A stretch of DNA of 64,000 bases, taken from the NCBI GenBank assembly GCA_030824495.1, contig JAVBXP010000042.1, forward strand, positions 11,331 through 75,330. Reading direction: 5' to 3'. The DNA comes from a bacterium (GTDB lineage Bacteria; Pseudomonadota; Alphaproteobacteria; Caulobacterales; Caulobacteraceae). The translations under genes and the position numbers were made by a program. The notes below the pieces were generated by a model. It was not told where the DNA came from, did not search any database, and saw nothing but the letters and a program-made list of their open reading frames with translations. This document shows positions 13,679 to 22,815 of the stretch, piece by piece (within the stretch, counting starts at the first letter, position 1; each line of letters begins with the position of its first letter).

Positions 13679-14458
13679 ATGAAGTCCGTCCGGATCGCCG
13701 CCGCCCAGACGCTCGAATACCGCGAAGACATCGGCGCGGCGCTCGCCGCCGCATCCGACTTCGCCGCTCAGGCCGAGGCCAAGGGCGCCTCCATGCTGGT
13801 CTTCCCAGAAGGCTTTCTCCAGGGCTACCTGACGCAAGAGGCTCCGGCCCGGCGCAACGCCCTCGACCTCGCCTCCCCTGCATTCGCGGACGTACTTGAA
13901 CGGTTTCCGAAGACCGGGCCGATGATCGTCATGGGCATGATCGAGGTGGAGAACGGGCGGCTCTACAACACCGCCGTCGTGATGCAGGGCCGCGCCCTGA
14001 TCGGCCGCTATCGCAAAGCGCACCTGCTCGGCGGCGAGCGGATATTCGATGCGGGGCGGGAAAGTCCGGTCTTCGAGGCTGACGGCCTGCGGTTCGGCGT
14101 CAACATTTGCTACGACATGAACTTTCCGGAGGCGGCGCGGCAGGTCGCCGACCTCGGCGCTTCTCTCATCGTCGGCCCAGCCAACAACATGCTGCAGCGG
14201 GAAACCGCAGAGATCTGGAAGGATCGACACAATCTGGCCCGTGGCGAACGCTGCCGCGAGACCGGCCTCTGGTTGGTTTCCGCCGACATCGTCGGGGCTC
14301 GCGATGGGAAAATCTCTTGGGGTCCGACCGCCGTCCTGAATCCTTCCGGCGAGGTCGAGGCTCAGTTGCCCCTGGAACAGCCTGGCTTGCTGGTCTTCGA
14401 TATCCCCGACCGCCTATCGGCCCCTTCGAGTTCAGTGAACACTGAGCCAAACGGCTGA
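13679..14458 (+). CDS. Carbon-nitrogen hydrolase (nitrilase superfamily)
   Basis: Catalytic triad motifs VFPE, YRKAHL, NICYD. Confidence 0.9.
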   Translation: MKSVRIAAAQTLEYREDIGAALAAASDFAAQAEAKGASMLVFPEGFLQGYLTQEAPARRNALDLASPAFADVLERFPKTGPMIVMGMIEVENGRLYNTAVVMQGRALIGRYRKAHLLGGERIFDAGRESPVFEADGLRFGVNICYDMNFPEAARQVADLGASLIVGPANNMLQRETAEIWKDRHNLARGERCRETGLWLVSADIVGARDGKISWGPTAVLNPSGEVEAQLPLEQPGLLVFDIPDRLSAPSSSVNTEPNG

Positions 14459-14693
14459 TTTTCCCGACTGCGATGCAAAATATCGGGCACGCCGATTCTC
14501 CAGGCGGCGGGCAAATACATCAACAACAGGTTCAATTCCGGTCGCGCGATTCATCAGGCGAAACCCGCGGTTTCGCCATCAATAAAAACCCGGAGACAAC
14601 TTCGACCGGTAGAATCCAGCGTCAGGCTGAATGCTTGACCATGGGCGGCAATTCAGTAACGGTAAGGAAATATTTACCTCGGCACTGAGGAAA

Positions 14694-15809
14694 ATGACCG
14701 TGCGAATAGCCGTATTTCTGATCATCAGCGCCTCTTTCTTCGCCACAACAGCGGTCCAGGCGCAGGTTACAGGCGTGGTCACCCACACCAGCGCGACCGT
14801 GGAATTCAGGCCCGGCGCCGACGGCTCGAAAACCATCCATGAAGTGTTGGGGCCGCAGATCGATGGCTCGCTTGGGAGCCGTAGTTGGGGTTCAGGCGCC
14901 AGCTTCGCCGCCACCTCCCGTGTCGAACCGAACTTCGTTGAATTCCAGAATGGCAACGCCGCCGGCGGGACCTTCAGCTACGTCGTTTCGCGGACCCTGG
15001 TGGACATCAGCTTCACCAATGACGGCCAGATGGCGGTCACGCCCAGCCTGCTCTCAACCATCACGCCGGCCGGGCTTGGGGTGTTCACGGACGCGCAATG
15101 CCTCAACAATCTCAACACCTGCTCGGCGCTGGCGCCCAACGTCGTGGACAGCCGCAACTTCCTGGACTTCAAGCCGGGCGCCGCTGAGGACATCGCCGGC
15201 GCCTCGTTCTTCTTCCGCATCACCGGCGACGGGCAGACGCTCTATGAGCTCCAAGGCAGCCTGGGCCTCGTCTACGATCCGGCCAGCAATTCCAACATCC
15301 TGGTCAGCGACCTGGATGATGCGGCGGGTGCCCTCTCCGGCTTCCGGATGGTGTCGACGCCGGGAGACCTGAACGAGTTCAGCTTCGTCTGGGACGCCAC
15401 CGACATAGATGTGGGCTTCCCTGCCGGCACATTGCTGCTGCCGGGCGAGTCCTCGACGCTTACCTACGAGACGGTTGTGCAGTCCTACTCGCGTAGTGGA
15501 TGCTTCGAGATTCAGAACGGCGCCTGCGTGCTGTCCTATTCGTCGTTCGGCGACCCGATCGGGCGCGGCGGCACGTCCCGGCCTCACCTGCGCCAAGCCT
15601 TTGCGGCCGGTCCCGGCCCAAGCGACGATATCGAGTTCGACCCCTTCCGGTTTGAGTATCCGACCTTCAAGGACGGGGTGGTATCGTTCCGGCTGCTGCC
15701 GCTTTCGGCGGTTCCCGAGCCGTCGACCTGGGCCATGATGATCGTCGGCTTCGGATTGATCGGCGCGGCGGCGAGGCGGCGTCGGCGGACGGACCCGGTG
15801 ATGGTCTAG
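14694..15809 (+). CDS. PEP-CTERM (PEPxxWA-type) sorted surface protein of unknown function
   Basis: Signal peptide MTVRIAVFLIISASFFATTAVQA; C-terminal VPEPSTWAMMIVGFGLIGAAARRRRR; GAGG RBS before ATG 14694. Confidence 0.88.
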   Translation: MTVRIAVFLIISASFFATTAVQAQVTGVVTHTSATVEFRPGADGSKTIHEVLGPQIDGSLGSRSWGSGASFAATSRVEPNFVEFQNGNAAGGTFSYVVSRTLVDISFTNDGQMAVTPSLLSTITPAGLGVFTDAQCLNNLNTCSALAPNVVDSRNFLDFKPGAAEDIAGASFFFRITGDGQTLYELQGSLGLVYDPASNSNILVSDLDDAAGALSGFRMVSTPGDLNEFSFVWDATDIDVGFPAGTLLLPGESSTLTYETVVQSYSRSGCFEIQNGACVLSYSSFGDPIGRGGTSRPHLRQAFAAGPGPSDDIEFDPFRFEYPTFKDGVVSFRLLPLSAVPEPSTWAMMIVGFGLIGAAARRRRRTDPVMV

Positions 15810-15825
15810 CGGGCGCGCCCGTCAC

Positions 15826-17712
15826 TTGGCGCCGCGATACAGCGCATTCCTGAGCTACAGCCACCGCGACAAGGCGGTGGTGGTTTGGCTGCATCACACG
15901 CTGGAAACCTATCGCGTCCCCTCCAAGCTGGTGGGCCTTGAAACCCCCCTTGGGATCACGCCGGCCAGGCTGCTGCCGCTCTTTCGCGATCGCGACGAAC
16001 TGCCGGCTTCCGATGATCTGAGCAGCGCAATCACTGCAGCGCTGGCCGCCTCGCAGTTCCTGGTGGTGATCTGTTCTCCGGCGGCGGCGGCCTCCCGGTG
16101 GGTCGATCAGGAGATCCTGTCCTTCAAGCGGATGCACGGCGAGGGCCGGATCTTCGCCTTGATCGCCAGCGGCGAGCCCTTCGCCTCGGCGTCTCCGGAG
16201 ACGGCCGATCAGGAGTGCTTCCCGCCCAGCCTGCGTTTCCGCATCGGCCCGGACGGAGAGCTATCCAACGAACCGGCCGAGCCGATCGCCGCCGACATCA
16301 GGCCCGAAGGCGACGGCAAGCGGCTGGCGAAGCTGAAGCTGGCCGCTGGCCTCCTAGGGGTCGAGCTCGACGCCCTGGTCCAGCGCGAAACCCACAGGCG
16401 CATCCGCCGTATGGCGATCATATCGTCGGCTGCGGTCGTCGGGATGATCTTCGCCGTCGGCCTGGCCTTCTACGCCAACGCCAGGCGGATAGAAGCCAAC
16501 CAGCAACGCCAAGTCGCCGAGCGAGAGTCCGCTACCGCGCGCGCCACAGCCGACTACCTGGTCGACACCTTCCGGCTATCCGAACCCTCGACGCAGAACC
16601 CCCGGACGATCACCGCGCTCTCGATCCTGGATCGAAGCGCCGAACGCGCCCGCACCGAGCTGGCCGACCAGCCCGTGGTCCTGGCCCGCCTGATCTCCAC
16701 CCTAGGGATGGCCTACAACAATCTAGGCCTGGCCAATGAGGCGCGTCAGGCGATCGAGGGTTCGGCGCCGGCGATCGCCAAGGCGGGGGCGGACGGCGCC
16801 GACGCCCAACTGACGCTGGCCGGCACCTACCTGATGCTGGGTCAACTGGACCGGGCGATGACCACGGTCGCCAAGGCGCAGGCCACGCTGGGACCAGATC
16901 CCGCCAACCGGCCGGACGTGCGGGTGAGAGCCGCCGTCACCGAGGGGATGATCCACGCCGCCGCCGGAGAAACCACAAAGGGCATCGCCGCCTTCGACCG
17001 CGCCTTGGCCGTTTACCGCACGTCGCCTGCGATCAATCCGGCCCGGTTGGCGACGGTGCTGCAGGCGCGCGGCAACCTGCTGTCGGACGACGGCCAGTTC
17101 GCCGCCGCCGAGACCTCGCTGGGCGAAGCGCTCAAGCTCAACCGAAGCACGCTGGGCGACCACCACATGGAAACCGGTCAGACCTGGTTCGCCCTGGCCC
17201 AGAACGCCTTCCTCGCCGGCGACCTGCCGCTGGCCGAGACGCGGATCGCCAACGCCCTCAAGATCGAACGCGAGGTGCTCGACCCCGACAATCCGATCAT
17301 CGCCGACGCGCTTTCGATGCAGGGCCAGATCTATCAGGCCCAGAAGCGGCTGGTGGAGGCTGAGCGGTCGCTGGAACAGGCTGTGGCGATCTACAAGAAG
17401 GCCTTCGCCGGCCCGCACTATCTGATCGGGATCGCCGAGGTCTATCTCGCCCTCGTCGAGTCCGAACGCGGCCGCACCGAAATGGCGCTGCGAATCCTCG
17501 ACGACGCCAAGCACAATTACGACGTCAGCTACGGCAGGATCCACCCCAATCACGGCGACCTGTTGGTCAACCGGGCGACCATCCTGGCCAGAGCCGGACG
17601 CCGCAACGAGGCCCGCGCCGATTGCGCCGAGGGCCTGAAAATCCTGGCCCAGACCATGGGGCCGCAAGCCAGCTACACCAGATCCATGACGGCGGTCTGT
17701 GCGCAGATCTGA
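15826..17712 (+). CDS. TIR domain - single TM - TPR repeat protein
   Basis: AFLSYSHRD...FRDRDEL...SQFLVVICSPAAAASRWVDQEI (TIR, Glu96); one TM at about aa 196-217; long TPR array (LGMAYNNLG, TWFALA, LLVNRA); TTG start. Confidence 0.88.
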   Translation: MAPRYSAFLSYSHRDKAVVVWLHHTLETYRVPSKLVGLETPLGITPARLLPLFRDRDELPASDDLSSAITAALAASQFLVVICSPAAAASRWVDQEILSFKRMHGEGRIFALIASGEPFASASPETADQECFPPSLRFRIGPDGELSNEPAEPIAADIRPEGDGKRLAKLKLAAGLLGVELDALVQRETHRRIRRMAIISSAAVVGMIFAVGLAFYANARRIEANQQRQVAERESATARATADYLVDTFRLSEPSTQNPRTITALSILDRSAERARTELADQPVVLARLISTLGMAYNNLGLANEARQAIEGSAPAIAKAGADGADAQLTLAGTYLMLGQLDRAMTTVAKAQATLGPDPANRPDVRVRAAVTEGMIHAAAGETTKGIAAFDRALAVYRTSPAINPARLATVLQARGNLLSDDGQFAAAETSLGEALKLNRSTLGDHHMETGQTWFALAQNAFLAGDLPLAETRIANALKIEREVLDPDNPIIADALSMQGQIYQAQKRLVEAERSLEQAVAIYKKAFAGPHYLIGIAEVYLALVESERGRTEMALRILDDAKHNYDVSYGRIHPNHGDLLVNRATILARAGRRNEARADCAEGLKILAQTMGPQASYTRSMTAVCAQI

Positions 17713-17723
17713 AGGGGGACATC

Positions 17724-19592
17724 ATGCCGGGCCTTGCCATGACACCGCGGATGCGCGCTGCTGGGCGGCGGCAGTCAACGGGGATGAGCAGAGACTTGGC
17801 CAGCCAGCACCCTCCACGCGTCCGGCCTGTACTGACGGTGGGTGTCACCGGTCACCGGCGGCTGACTGAGGAGTCCCTTGAACCGCTGAAGCGGTCCATC
17901 GAGATCATCCTGCGCGAACTGGCTCATGACGCACGATCGGTGGCGGCCGACCACCTCGACGTTTTTGAAACCGCTGATCCCCAGCTCACCCTGCTGTCCG
18001 GCCTCGCGATGGGGGCCGACCAGATCGGCGCCGCCGTCGCGTTGGAACAGGGCTGGAGCCTGGACGCCGTCCTGCCGTTCACGGTCGAGGAATATGCGCG
18101 CGACTTCGCCGGCGAGGCCGCCGACAACTTCGGGCGGCTGCTGGCCCAGACCCGCCATTCATGGTCGGTGCCGTCCACCCGAGAACAGGGCGATCAAGCC
18201 TACGCCCTGTCCGGACAGGTCACCGCCGCGCAGTCCGACCTGATCATCGCGGTCTGGGACGGGGATGAAGCGCGCGGGCCTGGAGGGACAGCCGAGGTCG
18301 TGGACTACGCGATCCGCCGGGGCGTGCCGGTGATCTGGTTGCCGGCCGACGGTGTTTCGGCCGCCTCCATCCTATGGGCCGGGTTCGATCATCTTTCGCC
18401 CTGCCTGCTAGACCGACATGGCGCGCCGCGGCGCCCCTGCGACGGTCCTCAGCTCCGCGAACTCGTCACGCGGCTGCTGGCGCCGCCGCCCGCCCCAGAA
18501 CAAAAGGCCAGCCTGGCGACCTATCTCGCCGAACGCCAGCACCTGTGGCGCGTGCGGCCGGAGTACCCGTTCCTGCTGATCCTCACCGGCACGCGCGCCG
18601 TGACGCGATACCAGCCGCGCGTGAGGCCCTATGCCGAGGCGGCCGAAGCTGATTGGCGCGCCTTCCGTGCGAGCGAGGCGGCCTCGGCGCCCGAGGCCCA
18701 GGCCGGCCTGGACCAGTTGCAAGACGCCTTCGGCTGGAGCGACGCCCTGGCCAACCACTATTCCCAGACCTACCGAGGCGGCCTGGTGTTCAACTATTCC
18801 GCCGCCGCCCTTTCGGTCTTGCTGGCCCTGACCGGCCTGTTGGCGCCAGGCGCCAAGGTCTGGCTGCTGTTGTCGGAACTGGCGGTGCTGGCGGCGCTGA
18901 TCGGCAACACCGCCCAAGGCACGCGCGCCAACTGGCACCGTCGCTGGCTGGACTACCGCTACCTGGCCGAACGGCTGCGCCCGTTGCGCAGCTTGCGGCT
19001 GCTGGGCGCGGCGACGCCGGGTTTCAACCTCAACCCCGCTGGCGCAGCCAAGTGGAGCGATTGGTACGCGCAAGCCCTGTGGCGCCAGCTTGGTCCGCCG
19101 GCCGCCCTGGCCAGCACCGCAGAGGTCGCCAATCTCGCCGAACAGGTGGCGCTGCACGAGCTGGACTCGCAGATCGCCTACAACCGCGCCAACGCCGAGC
19201 GCATGCATCACCTGGATCACAGCCTGCACCGAGTCGGGACGGCGCTGTTCTACGGCGCGGTGCTGGTCGGGATCGTCAGCCTGATCGGCTACACGCTCCA
19301 CATCGAGATCATCTCGTCCTGGAGCAAGATGCTGACGGTGCTGTCAGCCGGTCTGCCAACCATCGGCGCGGCCCTGTTCGGCATCCGCGGTCAGGGCGAC
19401 TTCGCCGCCGCAGCCGGTCGCTCGGAGGCCACCGCCGAACGCCTGGAGGCCCTGGCCCATCGGCTGCGCTCAAGGCCGATCGACCTGCCCATGGCCGCTC
19501 GAGCGGCCGAGGATTTCGCCGCCACCATGCTGGACGACCTGGACGAATGGCATGTCAGCTATCGGCATAGGAAACTGGCGATTCCCGCCTGA
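17724..19592 (+). CDS. SLOG (YpsA-like) domain fused to two SLATT/DUF4231-type 2TM modules
   Basis: VGVTGHR, LSGLAMGAD, LIIAVWDG, GGTAEVV..A...GVPV (SLOG); two TMs then WLDYRYLAERLR; then Q..Y, two TMs, R..L, terminal EW (SLATT); start at GGGGGA-preceded ATG 17724 (alternative 17784). Confidence 0.82.
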   Translation: MPGLAMTPRMRAAGRRQSTGMSRDLASQHPPRVRPVLTVGVTGHRRLTEESLEPLKRSIEIILRELAHDARSVAADHLDVFETADPQLTLLSGLAMGADQIGAAVALEQGWSLDAVLPFTVEEYARDFAGEAADNFGRLLAQTRHSWSVPSTREQGDQAYALSGQVTAAQSDLIIAVWDGDEARGPGGTAEVVDYAIRRGVPVIWLPADGVSAASILWAGFDHLSPCLLDRHGAPRRPCDGPQLRELVTRLLAPPPAPEQKASLATYLAERQHLWRVRPEYPFLLILTGTRAVTRYQPRVRPYAEAAEADWRAFRASEAASAPEAQAGLDQLQDAFGWSDALANHYSQTYRGGLVFNYSAAALSVLLALTGLLAPGAKVWLLLSELAVLAALIGNTAQGTRANWHRRWLDYRYLAERLRPLRSLRLLGAATPGFNLNPAGAAKWSDWYAQALWRQLGPPAALASTAEVANLAEQVALHELDSQIAYNRANAERMHHLDHSLHRVGTALFYGAVLVGIVSLIGYTLHIEIISSWSKMLTVLSAGLPTIGAALFGIRGQGDFAAAAGRSEATAERLEALAHRLRSRPIDLPMAARAAEDFAATMLDDLDEWHVSYRHRKLAIPA

Positions 19593-19610
19593 AACCAGGA
19601 CACGTCTTCG

Positions 19611-20789
19611 ATGCCTGAAGCCGCCACCGCTCCCAACGCCGAAAGCGATGTCCAGATCGGCGCGGCGCGTTTGCGCGAGCACCTGTTGAACCATGCCGAG
19701 TTGCTGTTCCGCCGCGCGCTCGCGACCGCTCCCGGTCACCCGACGGCGACGCGCCTGCTCGGGGTCACGCTCTTCAAGATGGGACGGGCCGATGAAGGCC
19801 TGACCCTGCTACGCGCCGCCACTGAGCAGGACGAGGTCCCGCCTGCGGCCTGGAGCGATCTGGCCACCGCCCTCCAACGCCAAGGCGACGCCGAAGGTGC
19901 GGCCCACGCCTACGCCCGTGCAGCCTCACAGCCCGGAGCACACACCCCCGTCGATCTCGGCTTTTCCAGCGAGCGCGCCGTCCACGAGTTCAAGGTCGTC
20001 GACTATCCCTACCGCTCGGTGGTGCGCTATGGTGCCGGTCGACCGCCGCACCGCGAGTTGGACAAACTGATTGGATCGGGCCGCGACACCTACCGGACGT
20101 TCCTGTCCGATATGGGCCAGATCCAGGAGGACTTCGCCAAGATCCCGCTCGGCGGCACATACAAGACCAGAACGCCCTTTTGGCTGAACGCCTGGTTCCC
20201 GCCGCTGGACGGCATGGTGCTGACCCAAATGCTGCGCGGGACCAACCCGGACCGCTTCGTCGAGATCGGCTCAGGGGTTTCGACCAAGTTCGCGCGCCGG
20301 GCGGTCGATCTCTACGGCCTGCGCACCAAGTTGATCTCGATCGACCCACAGCCCCGCAACGAGATCGATGTCATCTGCGACCAGGTCCTGCGCAAGCCGC
20401 TTGAGCTCTGCAATGTCGAGATGTTCGAGGATCTGAACCCCGGCGACATCCTGTTCCTGGATTCATCGCACCGGTCTTTCCAGGGCTCGGACGTCACCGT
20501 GTTTTTCATGGAGATCCTGCCGCGCCTGAAGCCTGGCGTGATCGTCCACATCCACGACATCTACCTGCCGGACGACTATGTCAGCGGCCACGTTCCGCGC
20601 ATGTGGAACGAGCAATACCTGCTGGGCGTCGCCCTGCTGTTTGGGCGGAACGCGTTCGAGATCCTCTTCCCCTGCTGGTTCGTCGGCCAGGATCCGGAAC
20701 TGTCGCACCACGCAGACGCCATGCTGCGCCAGGGACCGCTGGAAGGCCTCAACCTCTATGGGGCTTCGTTCTGGATGCGGAAAACCTAG
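19611..20789 (+). CDS. TPR-fused class I SAM-dependent methyltransferase (Methyltransf_24-like)
   Basis: N-terminal TPRs; EIGSGVST, LFLDSSH, GVIVHIHD. Confidence 0.8.
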   Translation: MPEAATAPNAESDVQIGAARLREHLLNHAELLFRRALATAPGHPTATRLLGVTLFKMGRADEGLTLLRAATEQDEVPPAAWSDLATALQRQGDAEGAAHAYARAASQPGAHTPVDLGFSSERAVHEFKVVDYPYRSVVRYGAGRPPHRELDKLIGSGRDTYRTFLSDMGQIQEDFAKIPLGGTYKTRTPFWLNAWFPPLDGMVLTQMLRGTNPDRFVEIGSGVSTKFARRAVDLYGLRTKLISIDPQPRNEIDVICDQVLRKPLELCNVEMFEDLNPGDILFLDSSHRSFQGSDVTVFFMEILPRLKPGVIVHIHDIYLPDDYVSGHVPRMWNEQYLLGVALLFGRNAFEILFPCWFVGQDPELSHHADAMLRQGPLEGLNLYGASFWMRKT

Positions 20790-20898
20790 CCGGGAATTCA
20801 GCCCACAGGATTCACCATGTAGGGTAGTATTTCGTCCACCTTTCCTGCCTTAGCGGTGCTGCTGGGGCGGTGTTGTCGCTCCGGTTCAGGAGCGCGTG

Positions 20899-22815
20899 AT
20901 GCCTATTCCTACTGCGACGATCGTCGTCGCCGATGACGCCCTGCAGATCGGCGCGACCTCGCTGGTGACCATCACCTTCTCCGAAGCGGTCTCCGGCTTC
21001 AGCAACGCCGGCCTGACCATCGAGAACGGCACGCTTTCGGCGGTCTCGTCCAGCGACGGCGGCGTCACGTGGACGGCGACCTTCACGCCGAGTTCCTCAA
21101 TTTCCGACGCCACCAACGTCATTGCGCTGGACAATTCCGGCGTGGAGGCCGCTTCCGGCGACTTTGGCGTGGGCACGACACTCTCCAACAACTACGAGAT
21201 CGACACCGTGCGTCCGACCGCGACCATCTTCGTCGCCGACGACGCCTTGGCGATCGGCCAGACCTCGACGGTGACCTTCACCTTTTCCGAGGCGGTCAAC
21301 GGCTTCACCAACGCCGACCTGGACATCGCCAACGGAACGCTCTCGAACGTGAGCAGCAGCGATGGCGGCGTCACCTGGACCGCGACCTTGACCCCGACCG
21401 CCGCGACAACCGACGCCTTGAACATCATTACGCTCGACAACACCGGCGTGGCTGACCTGGCCGGAAACGCCGGCTCCGGCACGACCGATTCTGGCAACTA
21501 TGCGATCGACACCGTGCGCCCGCACGCGACGGGCATCGCAATAAGCGACGCAACGTTGAAGGCCGGCGAAACAGCGGTGGTGACAATCACCTTCTCCGAA
21601 GCGGTGAGCGGCTTCACCAGCGCCGACCTGGCCATCGCCAACGGAACGCTCTCAGGCGTGACCAGCGGCGATGGCGGCGTCACCTGGACCGCGACACTGA
21701 CTCCGAGCGCCGGGATCTCCGACACCACCAACTTCATCACCGTGGACAATACCGGCGTGACCGACCTGGCCGGCAACGCTGGCTCGGGCACGATGAACTC
21801 CGGCAACTACGCCATCGACACTGCGCGCCCGACGGCGACCATCGTCGTGGCCGACCCGACGCTCGGCGTCGGCGAAACCTCGCTGGTGACAATTACTTTC
21901 TCCGAAGCGGTGAGCGGCTTCACCAACGCCGACCTGGACATCGCCAACGGCACGCTCTCGAACGTGAGCAGCAGCGATGGCGGCATAACCTGGACCGCGA
22001 CACTGACTCCGAGCGCCGGAATCTCCGACACCACCAACCTCGTCACCCTGGACAACACCGGCGTGGCCAACGCGGCCGGAAATGCCGGAATCGGCACGAC
22101 CGATTCGAACAGCTATGCGGTCGAGACCATTGTCGGGCCGCCTCCTGGCCCCGATCCCGAGCCGAATACCCCGACCGACGGCGATGACGTGATCACGTTG
22201 CCCTCGACGGGCGGCACGGTCTCGGCGGGTGAAGGCGCTGATAGCGTCAGCGGCGCTGTCGGCGATGATTTCATTCACGGAAACACCGGTGACGACTCCC
22301 TTGCCGGCGGCGCGGGCGACGACATCGCCCGCGGCGGCCAGGGCGCGGACTTCGTTCAAGGCAATACCGGCGATGACCTGGTGTTCGGTGACCTGGGCGA
22401 CGACACGGCAGTCGGCGGCCAGGGTTTCGACTTCGTCCAAGGCAACGCGGGGGACGACTATGTCTCCGGCGACCTCGGAAACGACACTGTCCTGGGCGGC
22501 CAGGGCGCCGACGTCGTGCTGGGCGGCGCCGGCGACGACTATGTCTCCGGCGACCTGGGCGACGACACCCTCATCGGCGGAACCGGCGCGGATCTGTTTA
22601 ATTTCTCGGGCGGGTCCGGCCACGACATCATCACCGACTTCTCGCGCGTCGAGGGCGACCAAATTCGCATCTCGCCCGGCGATGCAGCCAGCTTCTCGGC
22701 GCTGTCAATCACCAGTCAGGGCGCTGACACCCTGATCACCCTGGGCGCCCAGACCGTGCTTCTGGTCGGCGTTTCAGCCGGCTCCCTGACCGCCGCGGAC
22801 TTCGTGTTCGCCTAG
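20899..22815 (+). CDS. Ig-like repeat protein with RTX Ca-binding repeats; probable T1SS-secreted surface protein
   Basis: Four ~102-aa T/S-rich repeats (VTITFSEAVSGF...SSDGGVTWTAT), Pro linker, GGxGxD nonapeptides, C-terminal LTAADFVFA; no signal peptide. Confidence 0.85.
   Translation: MPIPTATIVVADDALQIGATSLVTITFSEAVSGFSNAGLTIENGTLSAVSSSDGGVTWTATFTPSSSISDATNVIALDNSGVEAASGDFGVGTTLSNNYEIDTVRPTATIFVADDALAIGQTSTVTFTFSEAVNGFTNADLDIANGTLSNVSSSDGGVTWTATLTPTAATTDALNIITLDNTGVADLAGNAGSGTTDSGNYAIDTVRPHATGIAISDATLKAGETAVVTITFSEAVSGFTSADLAIANGTLSGVTSGDGGVTWTATLTPSAGISDTTNFITVDNTGVTDLAGNAGSGTMNSGNYAIDTARPTATIVVADPTLGVGETSLVTITFSEAVSGFTNADLDIANGTLSNVSSSDGGITWTATLTPSAGISDTTNLVTLDNTGVANAAGNAGIGTTDSNSYAVETIVGPPPGPDPEPNTPTDGDDVITLPSTGGTVSAGEGADSVSGAVGDDFIHGNTGDDSLAGGAGDDIARGGQGADFVQGNTGDDLVFGDLGDDTAVGGQGFDFVQGNAGDDYVSGDLGNDTVLGGQGADVVLGGAGDDYVSGDLGDDTLIGGTGADLFNFSGGSGHDIITDFSRVEGDQIRISPGDAASFSALSITSQGADTLITLGAQTVLLVGVSAGSLTAADFVFA
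20908..22131 (+). repeat. Four intragenic tandem repeats, period 306/306/309 bp
   Basis: Repeat-initial Pro codons at 20908, 21214, 21520, 21829; near-identical DNA blocks such as ttctccgaagcggtgagcggcttcacca. Confidence 0.9.

Follow-up and report, generated by a model that had tools for sequence, protein, structure and literature searches.

The window analysed here, a 64,000-nucleotide stretch of DNA from a member of the Caulobacteraceae, includes four plus-strand genes with operon-like spacing (gaps of 16, 11 and 18 nt across 14694..20789). The genes encode: (i) an exported protein with a C-terminal sorting signal, (ii) a protein with a TIR domain, a single transmembrane (TM) helix and a TPR array, (iii) a membrane protein with predicted SLOG and SLATT parts, and (iv) a TPR-methyltransferase (Table 1). 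A scan of 14300-21100 detects nothing that resembles a promoter; sites that resemble terminators are confined to the minus strand and are no more frequent than expected by chance. The TPR-methyltransferase gene was considered as a system component and rejected, as no homologue is noted in 83 loci related to this one; a gene of this type also follows the SLOG-SLATT gene in a 79%-identical relative (L095). The linkage is limited to close relatives, and the gene is, thus, probably outside the core system.

Table 1. Genes and protein features of the TIR-TM-TPR locus (positions in the window)
Feature	Position	Strand	Basis
Exported partner, ~371 aa, Sec-type signal peptide, PEPxxWA-CTERM	14694..15809	+	Pfam, NCBIfam
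TIR-TM-TPR protein, 628 aa	15826..17712	+	ORF, Pfam, AF2, family alignment
TIR domain, residues 1-177, predicted cytoplasmic	15826..16356	+	TIR_2, ThsB_TIR, AF2
Glu96 codon	16111-16113	+	Invariant in alignment
Single TM helix, residues 196-216	16411..16473	+	Kyte-Doolittle, Hessa scale
Charged stalk helix and juxtamembrane (JM) module, residues 217-310	16474..16755	+	Common to kinase-TM-TPR proteins
TPR array, residues 264-627, predicted periplasmic	16615..17706	+	Pfam, AF2
TPR-capping cysteine Cys600	17623-17625	+	Alignment
TPR-capping cysteine Cys625	17698-17700	+	Alignment
Predicted SLOG (YpsA/DprA-like)-SLATT membrane protein	17724..19592	+	NCBIfam, AF2 and Foldseek
TPR and Methyltransf_24 protein	19611..20789	+	Pfam; 18-nt gap

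The TIR-TM-TPR gene starts with TTG, and the MAPRYSAF... N-terminus of its product is common to full-length homologues (628 aa). Pfam assigns TIR_2 to residues 8-113 (6e-11; score 43.3, cut-off 28), ThsB_TIR to the same domain (4.4e-8), and four TPR_12 repeats (1.1e-26) with other TPR models to residues ~320-620. In the AF2 model (mean pLDDT 87), residues 5-177 form alternating strands and helices (pLDDT ~85-94) that fit the alpha/beta fold of TIR domains, residues 181-250 form one long helix, and residues 264-627 form the TPR helices. A first-pass annotation of the sequence had read the protein as a TIR with one TM helix, TPRs and no signal peptide; the Pfam, hydropathy and AF2 results all agree with this architecture. 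Foldseek with the full model matches generic TPR proteins only, the closest being the TPRs of LGN/Pins and kinesin light chain, and is uninformative about a ligand. The gene has no paralogues in its own genome, where tblastn with the TIR, JM or TPR part returns the gene itself only.

All 34 homologues aligned (30-82% identity) retain Glu96, and this residue corresponds to the glutamate of the W-x-x-x-E-L motif in two TIR structures, AtTIR (3jrn, 'SWCLDEL') and PdTIR (3h16, 'WPQKEL'). Because this residue is invariant and of the catalytic type, the TIR domain looks like an enzyme rather than an adaptor and is predicted to cleave NAD.

The sole hydrophobic segment of the protein is MAIISSAAVVGMIFAVGLAFYA (residues 196-217), a run of 22 uncharged hydrophobic residues with a Kyte-Doolittle 19-mer mean of 2.3 and a Hessa sum of -0.41 kcal/mol. 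The hydropathy scan of all 628 residues finds neither a second TM-like segment nor an N-terminal signal-like segment. In the family alignment the TM is the least conserved part in sequence, yet it is always hydrophobic; almost every homologue scanned, the kinase and nSTAND1 relatives among them, has a TM at the corresponding position. The distribution of Lys and Arg residues around the helix favors an N-in orientation in close homologues (112:0), representatives (27:0) and kinases (25:2); the C-terminal flank of the TM also carries about three Lys/Arg, which counts against this orientation. In 107 of 117 close homologues, the region after the TM has no cysteines other than a C-x24-C pair, exactly two post-TM cysteines are noted in 18 of 28 representatives, and the pair is also present in TIR-nSTAND1-TM-TPR relatives. 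AF2 positions the two residues, Cys600 and Cys625, in neighbouring antiparallel helices.

Kinase domains need cytoplasmic ATP, and TIR domains need cytoplasmic NAD+. These requirements, together with the lack of a signal peptide, favor an inside N-terminus, and the near-invariant C-x24-C pair, as the only post-TM cysteines, argues for a periplasmic TPR that may be stabilised by a C600-C625 disulfide. Based on four indirect lines, namely the Lys/Arg bias, the Cys pair, the kinase-type chassis and the nearby gene for an exported protein, the protein is most likely a type II single-pass inner-membrane protein with a cytoplasmic TIR and a periplasmic TPR. The same orientation had been proposed on first reading, and the Lys/Arg bias, the Cys pair and the exported neighbours lend it support. 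A helix that does not span the membrane, or spans it in reverse, would instead leave TIR and TPR in one compartment, with the TPR as a cytoplasmic sensor of the STAND/Avs type. TPR_12/TPR_10 arrays are typical of cytoplasmic STAND sensors, nSTAND1 proteins share the same TPR, and AF2 confidence is lower across residues 190-260. This arrangement is nevertheless very improbable, as it conflicts with the length and uncharged, hydrophobic character of the helix (kept in nearly all homologues), with the strong positive-inside bias, with the conserved Cys pair found only after the TM, and with the presence, at 68 of the 83 related loci, of an exported-protein gene no more than 6 kb away.

The membrane and TPR regions are shared well beyond the TIR proteins. 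An exhaustive search with residues 192-628, the C-terminal-only comparison that the first-pass annotation had called for, returns TIR-TM-TPR proteins and also many longer ones (850-1200 aa) in which the alignment begins at the TM. Pfam analysis of a sample of these longer matches identifies Pkinase in five (P0166, P0175, P0201, P0227 and P0230), nSTAND1 (defined in Kaur et al., eLife 2021, PMC8195603) in two and TIR-nSTAND1 in two. Residues 217-310 alone, which comprise the stalk and JM with no TM and little TPR, match 43 of 43 kinase/nSTAND1-TM-TPR proteins tested, directly after the TM helix, with 36-51% identity and E values down to 7e-22. Within this region, ATADYLVDTFRLSEP... is part of the JM module (residues 251-305), which is among the two most conserved stretches of the family alignment. 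The idea in the earlier reading, that the post-TM region resembles that of kinase-TM-TPR proteins and that a TIR stands in place of the kinase, is upheld by these matches: the 628-aa protein has TIR_2 and no Pkinase match in Pfam, while Pkinase heads are present on five of the sampled proteins.

By homology, the TM-stalk-JM-TPR region is a chassis that in other bacteria carries a Ser/Thr kinase or an nSTAND1 NTPase as its head instead of the TIR. The Ser/Thr kinase-TM-TPR proteins are homologous to the TIR-TM-TPR proteins in the TM, stalk, JM module and TPR_12/TPR_10 array, but differ in having a kinase as the head and, in most cases, no C-x24-C cap. The TIR-nSTAND1-TM-TPR and nSTAND1-TM-TPR proteins have the same TM-JM-TPR chassis, and the TIR-nSTAND1 forms share the C-x24-C pair. 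Unlike these NTPase-containing forms, the TIR-TM-TPR protein joins its TIR to the membrane helix with no intervening NTPase switch.

The gene upstream of the TIR gene, with AGGA 5 nt ahead of its ATG at 14694, encodes a protein with the signal peptide MTVRIAVFLIISASFFATTAVQAQ and a C-terminus that matches PEP-CTERM (2.5e-9, Pfam) and PEPxxWA-CTERM (1.4e-14; 53.6 bits, cut-off 35, NCBIfam). No other known domain is found in this partner. An exosortase is encoded in the same genome (PF09721, 209.6 bits, contig C77). With signal peptide, sorting signal and exosortase all three present, the partner is, on its sequence features, PEP-CTERM/exosortase cargo. Homologues of the PEP-CTERM partner adjoin the TIR gene in 42 of the 83 loci. 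Across these loci, the exported neighbours fall into three families that are unrelated to one another, and a signal peptide is present in most. Where partner and receptor are compared in the same loci, the partner retains ~30-35% identity vs. 60-62% for the receptor.

The gene downstream of the TIR gene is preceded by a GGGGGA ribosome-binding site. A sequence profile of its family finds nothing meaningful among PDB sequences; assignment of the N-terminal domain required an AF2 model (pLDDT 84.9) and Foldseek. The nearest structure is YpsA (2nx2; E 7e-5, TMt 0.66), followed by DprA (4ljr, 3e-3), ShosA (8zva) and the SLOG domain of ThsA (7uxs, prob 0.87). The GHR, GxD and GG motifs of this domain are invariant, and the Thr of GGT is nearly so. 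On the predicted structure, the N-terminal domain is a member of the SLOG superfamily and YpsA/DprA-like. SLATT_1 is matched at 1.5e-7, below the NCBIfam cut-off, which counts against the SLATT assignment; the model is matched, likewise below cut-offs, in 8 of 17 family members.

SLOG-type neighbours, counted by direct tblastn, occur at 45 of the 83 loci, in varied order and orientation and in two classes of bacteria; based on this recurrence, the TIR is proposed to make a signal that the SLOG protein senses. The neighbours are of two types: SLOG-SLATT homologues, encoded no more than 6 kb from the TIR gene at 26 loci, and TPR-S-SLOG-cyclase proteins, at 19. A comparison by hhalign (94.6%, E 6.6e-8) shows homology between the SLOG domain of the former and the middle domain of the latter, which suggests one SLOG sensor with two outputs, SLATT or cyclase. 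Five of the cyclase genes were flagged for internal TGA codons, which at the two loci examined are the genes' own stop codons. In whole-genome searches of a family sample of 151 genomes, the 16 carriers of TPR-S-SLOG-X all have the TIR head, with the genes adjacent, and TPR-S-SLOG-X is absent from all 126 sampled genomes that lack this head. SLOG-SLATT genes are present in 21 of the same 126 genomes and, thus, are not exclusive to the TIR head, which counts against the proposed pairing.

A further 38 of the 83 loci have no SLOG neighbour within 6 kb, and the locus of the relative L096 consists of the partner and TIR genes only. Such loci count against a signal-to-sensor pair and would suit a self-contained abortive-infection NADase, in which the TPR triggers the TIR to deplete NAD+ and the SLOG proteins are unrelated neighbours; many bacterial TIRs are indeed NAD+-depleting effectors (PMC11350192). 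This alternative is improbable, however, as SLOG neighbours recur in differing order and orientation in two classes of bacteria, the TPR-S-SLOG-X genes co-occur with and adjoin the TIR head in every carrier, and three genomes with no SLOG gene in the 6-kb flank encode one elsewhere.

The TIR-TM-TPR family is found in at least 592 species genomes of Alpha- and Gammaproteobacteria, where it is patchy and chromosomal. The TIR head is present in 25 of the 151 genomes of the family sample and in 2 of 10 in the genus. A phage collection has no match to the family, and a plasmid collection has a single, head-only match on a 1.8-Mb replicon, with none on mobilisable plasmids. PADLOC detects no known defence system at the locus, only weak domain matches (SAVED_TIR 6e-6, ShosA 2e-3), and its Thoeris models have no significant match. 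The surrounding genes are metabolic and form no defence island. The results with the phage and plasmid collections, with PADLOC and for the surrounding genes all count against the favored explanation.

The chromosomal location, the lack of PADLOC systems and the metabolic neighbourhood are in keeping with a housekeeping pathway, in which the receptor would monitor the export, sorting or load of the PEP-CTERM surface protein (exosortase/EPS). A TIR-made messenger would then tune the physiology of the surface or biofilm, either by way of ion flux (SLATT) or by synthesis of cNMP (cyclase). An exosortase-sorted partner in a genome with exosortase, and a cyclase output that is a relay and not a killer, fit the same explanation. 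By contrast, the patchy distribution, a partner that diverges much faster than the receptor, the swapping in of three unrelated partner families, and the anti-phage function of the TIR and SLATT or TIR and SLOG pairs characterised so far are not as expected of housekeeping. The housekeeping explanation is, thus, considered rather unlikely, though less so than the NADase one, and a role against phage or other attack is rated as more likely.

The explanation favored here, with somewhat better than even confidence, is that the protein is a receptor-type TIR signal synthase that acts as the producer of a Thoeris-like producer/effector pair and is triggered from the envelope. From linkage alone, the TPR would bind or monitor the co-encoded exported protein, which in this case is sorted to the surface by its PEP-CTERM signal. 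If this partner is disturbed in the envelope, the packing of the receptor may change and the TIR domains may come together; this step assumes that, like known TIR enzymes, the protein builds its active sites from more than one protomer. Phage entry or contact-dependent attack, suggested in the first-pass annotation, may be the trigger. Once assembled, the TIR would convert NAD+ to an ADP-ribose-derived messenger, and binding of the messenger by the YpsA-like SLOG of the neighbour may cause the SLATT part to open or assemble in the membrane. In relatives, the messenger may switch on a cyclase instead of SLATT. The YpsA-like SLOG clade has been implicated in sensing variants of cADPR (PMC9503650).

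Thoeris type VII, which consists of the TIR protein ThsB and the SLATT effector ThsH and uses canonical cADPR (bioRxiv 10.64898/2025.12.03.692087), is similar in that a TIR with a catalytic-type Glu adjoins a predicted membrane SLATT protein; this likeness, known from genes alone, does not extend to the fusion of SLOG to SLATT in the effector described here. In type I (TIR and the SIR2-SLOG protein ThsA), the SLOG fold of ThsA binds 3'cADPR, and the YpsA/DprA-like SLOG domain of the present effector has this fold too. As in Thoeris, the TIR gene is operonic with a candidate SLATT/signal-binding effector (11-nt gap here; such pairs at the 26 SLOG-SLATT loci). The TIR is not, however, of the soluble cytoplasmic ThsB type, and instead has a TM anchor, a ~410-residue TPR ectodomain and a conserved exported partner. 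To our knowledge, no characterised ThsB has a membrane anchor, and the TIR signalling systems of bacteria that have been characterised (Thoeris types I-XI and CBASS-like relatives) all detect infection in the cytoplasm. No paper describing the TIR-TM-TPR family was found in the literature, and the locus looks like an outside-in TIR signalling pathway of bacteria that is undescribed so far.

The protein had been called Toll-like in the first-pass annotation. This description holds for the layout, as animal Toll-like receptors also combine an ectodomain of solenoid repeats with a single TM helix and a TIR in the cytoplasm. It does not hold for the parts: Toll-like receptors are type I proteins with LRRs and a C-terminal TIR, whereas the bacterial protein is predicted to be type II, with TPRs, an N-terminal TIR that looks enzymatic rather than adaptor-like, and no signal peptide. 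Common descent of the whole receptor is unsupported. A broader proposal, plausible but held with less than even confidence, is that a widespread outside-in pathway exists in which: (i) a periplasmic TPR watches a fast-evolving exported bait or co-receptor, and (ii) the membrane TIR synthase produces an ADP-ribose-derived messenger in the cytoplasm for SLOG-gated outputs, either a SLATT pore or a cyclase that sets off a second messenger cascade. Such a pathway would be the first Thoeris-type system to sense at the envelope instead of within the cell, and a functional, convergent counterpart of Toll-like receptors on a chassis that can take kinase and STAND heads as well.

How events at an ectodomain activate a TIR across the membrane is the central question for Toll-like receptors, and the bacterial receptor, if it functions as proposed, would provide a tractable model of this step. 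NAD-derived messenger signalling could then start at the cell surface, before or at genome entry. If the receptor is used instead in housekeeping surveillance of the surface, bacteria would be seen for the first time to employ TIR-made messengers outside immunity. The modularity of these proteins points to a receptor toolkit worth mapping, which includes the TM-TPR chassis with TIR, kinase or nSTAND1 heads, the TIR-TM head with varied ectodomains, and the SLOG sensor with SLATT or cyclase output. A beta-repeat ectodomain in the relative L088 appeared YD/RHS-like by eye; it has no Pfam match and is not used as evidence. The TIR-linker-TM head is joined to other C-terminal domains in relatives.

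The TIR-TM-TPR protein is encoded by a real ORF, and its architecture is confirmed, with (i) an N-terminal TIR_2 domain (residues 8-113, 6e-11) that also matches ThsB_TIR, (ii) a sole strongly hydrophobic segment, MAIISSAAVVGMIFAVGLAFYA (residues 196-217), and (iii) several TPR models at residues ~320-620 (TPR_12, 1.1e-26, TPR_10 and TPR_MalT; Pfam). The hydrophobic segment has a Kyte-Doolittle 19-mer mean of 2.3 and a summed Hessa scale value of -0.41 kcal/mol, compared to +2.0 for the runner-up, a TIR beta-strand. No signal-like segment is found at the N-terminus. An AlphaFold2 model, for which 34 homologues were the input (mean pLDDT 87), has a TIR domain (1-177), a single continuous helix (181-250) in which the TM segment and a charged stalk both lie, and a run of TPR helices (264-627). 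In Foldseek, the TPR part matches TPRs that bind peptides, among them those of LGN/Pins and kinesin light chain.

Genes of the TIR-TM-TPR neighbourhood in the window
Feature	Coordinates	Strand	Product
Exported partner	14694-15809		PEPxxWA-CTERM protein
TIR-TM-TPR	15826-17712	+	628 aa
SLOG-SLATT	17724-19592		SLOG-SLATT protein
TPR-methyltransferase	19611-20789		TPR + Methyltransf_24 protein
Large repeat protein	20896-22815		tandem ~100-aa repeats, then glycine/aspartate-rich repeats

An exhaustive HMMER search of residues 192-628 against 1.84 billion representatives yields 42,994 matches (E<=1e-3). The best 150 of these include three kinds of protein whose alignment starts at the TM helix: TIR proteins of 600-680 aa, proteins of 850-1200 aa in which the matched stretch begins near residue 350-450, and a few longer proteins. 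The N-terminal domains of nine sampled matches, all with TPRs, are Pkinase (five), nSTAND1 (two) and TIR plus nSTAND1 (two; Pfam), and a hydrophobic segment lies at the aligned position in all nine and in nearly all other matches that run from the TM onward. As a control for generic TPR similarity, residues 217-310 were searched alone, without the TM and nearly without the TPRs. This stretch matches 43 of 43 kinase and nSTAND1 proteins (36-51% identity, E 4e-5 to 7e-22), starting a few residues from the TM helix in every one. Thus, the TM, stalk, juxtamembrane module and TPRs constitute a homologous chassis on which the cytoplasmic heads are exchangeable. The proposal of the first-pass annotation, that a TIR is here placed on a receptor chassis usually bearing a Ser/Thr kinase, is borne out. 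Among the matches of 1200-4000 aa (e.g., P0174, P0177, P0231 and P0264) are giant TPR_12-type proteins aligned to the TPR array, many with a lone hydrophobic segment in the first 40 residues that could be a signal anchor.

The TIR head is found on other C-terminal domains as well. In 151 genomes of the source's own family-level taxon, most matches span residues 3-232 only (TIR, linker and TM; ~50% identity), and these heads are joined to different C-terminal domains in the relatives. Seven loci from relatives in this taxon have such ~50% identical heads; one alternative C-terminus is a distinct array of helical repeats whose juxtamembrane motif reads AExLIEFMxGDLRxxLEPxGxLDxLD, and another (locus L088) is an array of ~40-residue beta-type repeats, YD-like by eye, with zero matches to Pfam.

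The TIR is predicted to be cytoplasmic and the TPR array periplasmic, a reading of the first-pass annotation that several lines support by inference. In line with the positive-inside rule, the 15 residues flanking the TM hold more Lys and Arg on the N-side than on the C-side in 112 out of 117 close homologues (the reverse in 0/117), and the same is true of 27/27 representatives and, by 25 versus 2, of the kinase relatives; the C-flank of the TM helix also holds ~3 such residues. Kinase and TIR heads require ATP and NAD+, respectively, and thus a cytoplasmic location. Of the close homologues, 107/117 have exactly two cysteines after the TM, as do 18/28 representatives, with C-x24-C spacing wherever positions are listed, and the pair is present in both TIR-nSTAND1-TM-TPR proteins. 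In the AlphaFold2 model, the cysteines sit in the final two antiparallel helices (593-610 and 616-627), roughly equidistant from the connecting loop, as expected if a disulfide capped the array within an oxidising compartment; a C-terminal disulfide of the TPR array is likewise predicted. Exported proteins are conserved neighbours of the TIR-TM-TPR genes and are counted as a further line on topology.

Direct tblastn of 83 distinct loci (flanks up to 6 kb) finds an exported partner of any family at 68 loci, in the form of a ~370-aa PEP-CTERM protein as in the window (42), a ~1000-aa NHL-repeat protein (17) or a ~805-aa protein without known domain (9). A SLOG-type protein of any kind is noted at 45 loci, including the SLOG-SLATT type of the window (26) and a TPR-S + SLOG + adenylate/guanylate cyclase protein (19); partner and SLOG-type protein occur together at 41 loci and neither occurs at 11, five of them short contigs. 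The NHL-repeat and cyclase assignments are backed by Pfam. In each of the three partner families, most members begin with a basic n-region, hydrophobic core and AxA-type site. The window partner scores above the NCBIfam cut-off for a PEPxxWA-CTERM signal, and an exosortase is encoded in the source genome. The partner gene precedes the TIR-TM-TPR gene in Caulobacterales and follows it in Sphingomonadales, and SLOG-SLATT is upstream, downstream or divergent; this variable gene order argues for a linkage that is functional rather than inherited.

Four co-directional window genes are separated by gaps of 16, 11 and 18 nt. The order partner, TIR, SLOG-SLATT and TPR-methyltransferase is retained at L095 (a 79% relative), and partner and TIR only are present at L096 (a 71% relative). 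The TPR-Methyltransf_24 gene is kept at L095 (79% identical) and absent from more distant loci. Some Phenylobacterium loci (L009, L011 and L030) have two tandem PEP-CTERM partner paralogues preceding the TIR-TM-TPR gene. The glycine/aspartate-rich repeats of the large repeat protein resemble hemolysin-type calcium-binding repeats by eye, its DNA repeats generate long minus-strand shadow ORFs, and its syntenic counterpart at L095 (1045 aa) is annotated with two Big_12 domains and HemolysinCabind.

The TIR domain looks enzymatic from its conserved residues. Across 34 aligned family members (30-82% identity), S10, Y11, D15, F53, D55, S90 and E96 are invariant. The E96 context, SRWVDQEI, aligns with SSWCLDEL of AtTIR (3jrn) and WPQKEL of PdTIR (3h16) in HMMER alignments, and the aligned Glu position is the one that the catalytic glutamate occupies in TIR NADases.

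The SLOG-SLATT protein of the window matches SLATT_1 below cut-off (1.5e-7); among 17 family members, eight match SLATT_1 and five SLATT_3. Its AlphaFold2 model (pLDDT 84.9, pTM 0.86) shows a Rossmann-like domain at the N-terminus, with YpsA (2nx2, E 7e-5, TM 0.66), DprA and ShosA as best PDB neighbours and the ThsA SLOG domain with bound 3'cADPR (7uxs) as a weaker one. This SLOG domain and the middle domain of the TPR-S-cyclase protein are homologous (hhalign 94.6%, E 6.6e-8), and the two proteins thus share a single sensor module with two outputs. The cyclase protein (~590 aa) is encoded convergent to, or right after, the TIR-TM-TPR gene, an arrangement suggesting that a TIR messenger feeds into a cNMP cascade at these loci. 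TPR-S + SLOG relatives with another C-terminal output also adjoin TIR-TM genes in the family sample. The TPR-S-SLOG-X gene is found in 16/151 genomes, all among the 25 TIR-head carriers and adjoining the TIR-head gene in 16/16, and in 0/126 genomes without the head. SLOG-SLATT is broader (29/151 genomes, just 6-8 of these with a TIR head). A recheck of five genomes without a SLOG neighbour in the ORF-based survey finds an adjacent cyclase gene in two, SLOG-SLATT apparently on another contig in two and a SLOG-only protein in one. As related genomes are non-independent, all of these counts are purely descriptive.

The TIR-TM-TPR protein is most likely a TIR signal synthase of the receptor type. 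Its periplasmic TPR array, capped by a disulfide, would monitor the co-encoded exported protein, probably by binding it, the cytoplasmic TIR would produce an NAD-derived messenger, and SLOG-bearing proteins (the SLATT form in the window) would carry out the response. SLATT has been predicted by Aravind's group to be a membrane effector gated by an ADPr derivative, with cADPR variants as the predicted ligands of the YpsA-like SLOG clade (PMC9503650, PMC7159879). Thoeris type VII pairs TIR with SLATT and signals by canonical cADPR, and type VIII pairs TIR with a TPR-bearing CMP hydrolase (bioRxiv 10.64898/2025.12.03.692087). The system is Thoeris-like in its proposed TIR-SLOG/SLATT signalling but differs in that the producer is transmembrane and presumably envelope-facing. 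According to a survey of TIR systems in E. coli, TLR-type TM and repeat features seem missing in bacterial TIR systems (PMC11350192). Within the literature library that could be searched, no paper contains both 'TIR domain' and 'PEP-CTERM', a pairing that subscription papers and supplements (e.g., Burroughs et al. 2015) may mention.

Full-length matches to the protein fall into more than 1,363 clusters (90% identity). Among species-representative genomes, at least 592 from the Alpha- and Gammaproteobacteria encode a relative, including Caulobacterales, Sphingomonadales, Steroidobacteraceae, Woeseiaceae and Haliea. A physiological signalling role may suit the metabolic neighbourhood of the gene in the window and the cyclase outputs of related loci; however, the distribution is patchy (TIR head in 25/151 genomes of the family sample and 2/10 in the genus), and the partners are swappable between loci and evolve faster than the receptor (e.g., 29-35% versus 60-62% identity, L005-L030). 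This distribution and such partners lean towards a role in conflict or defence.
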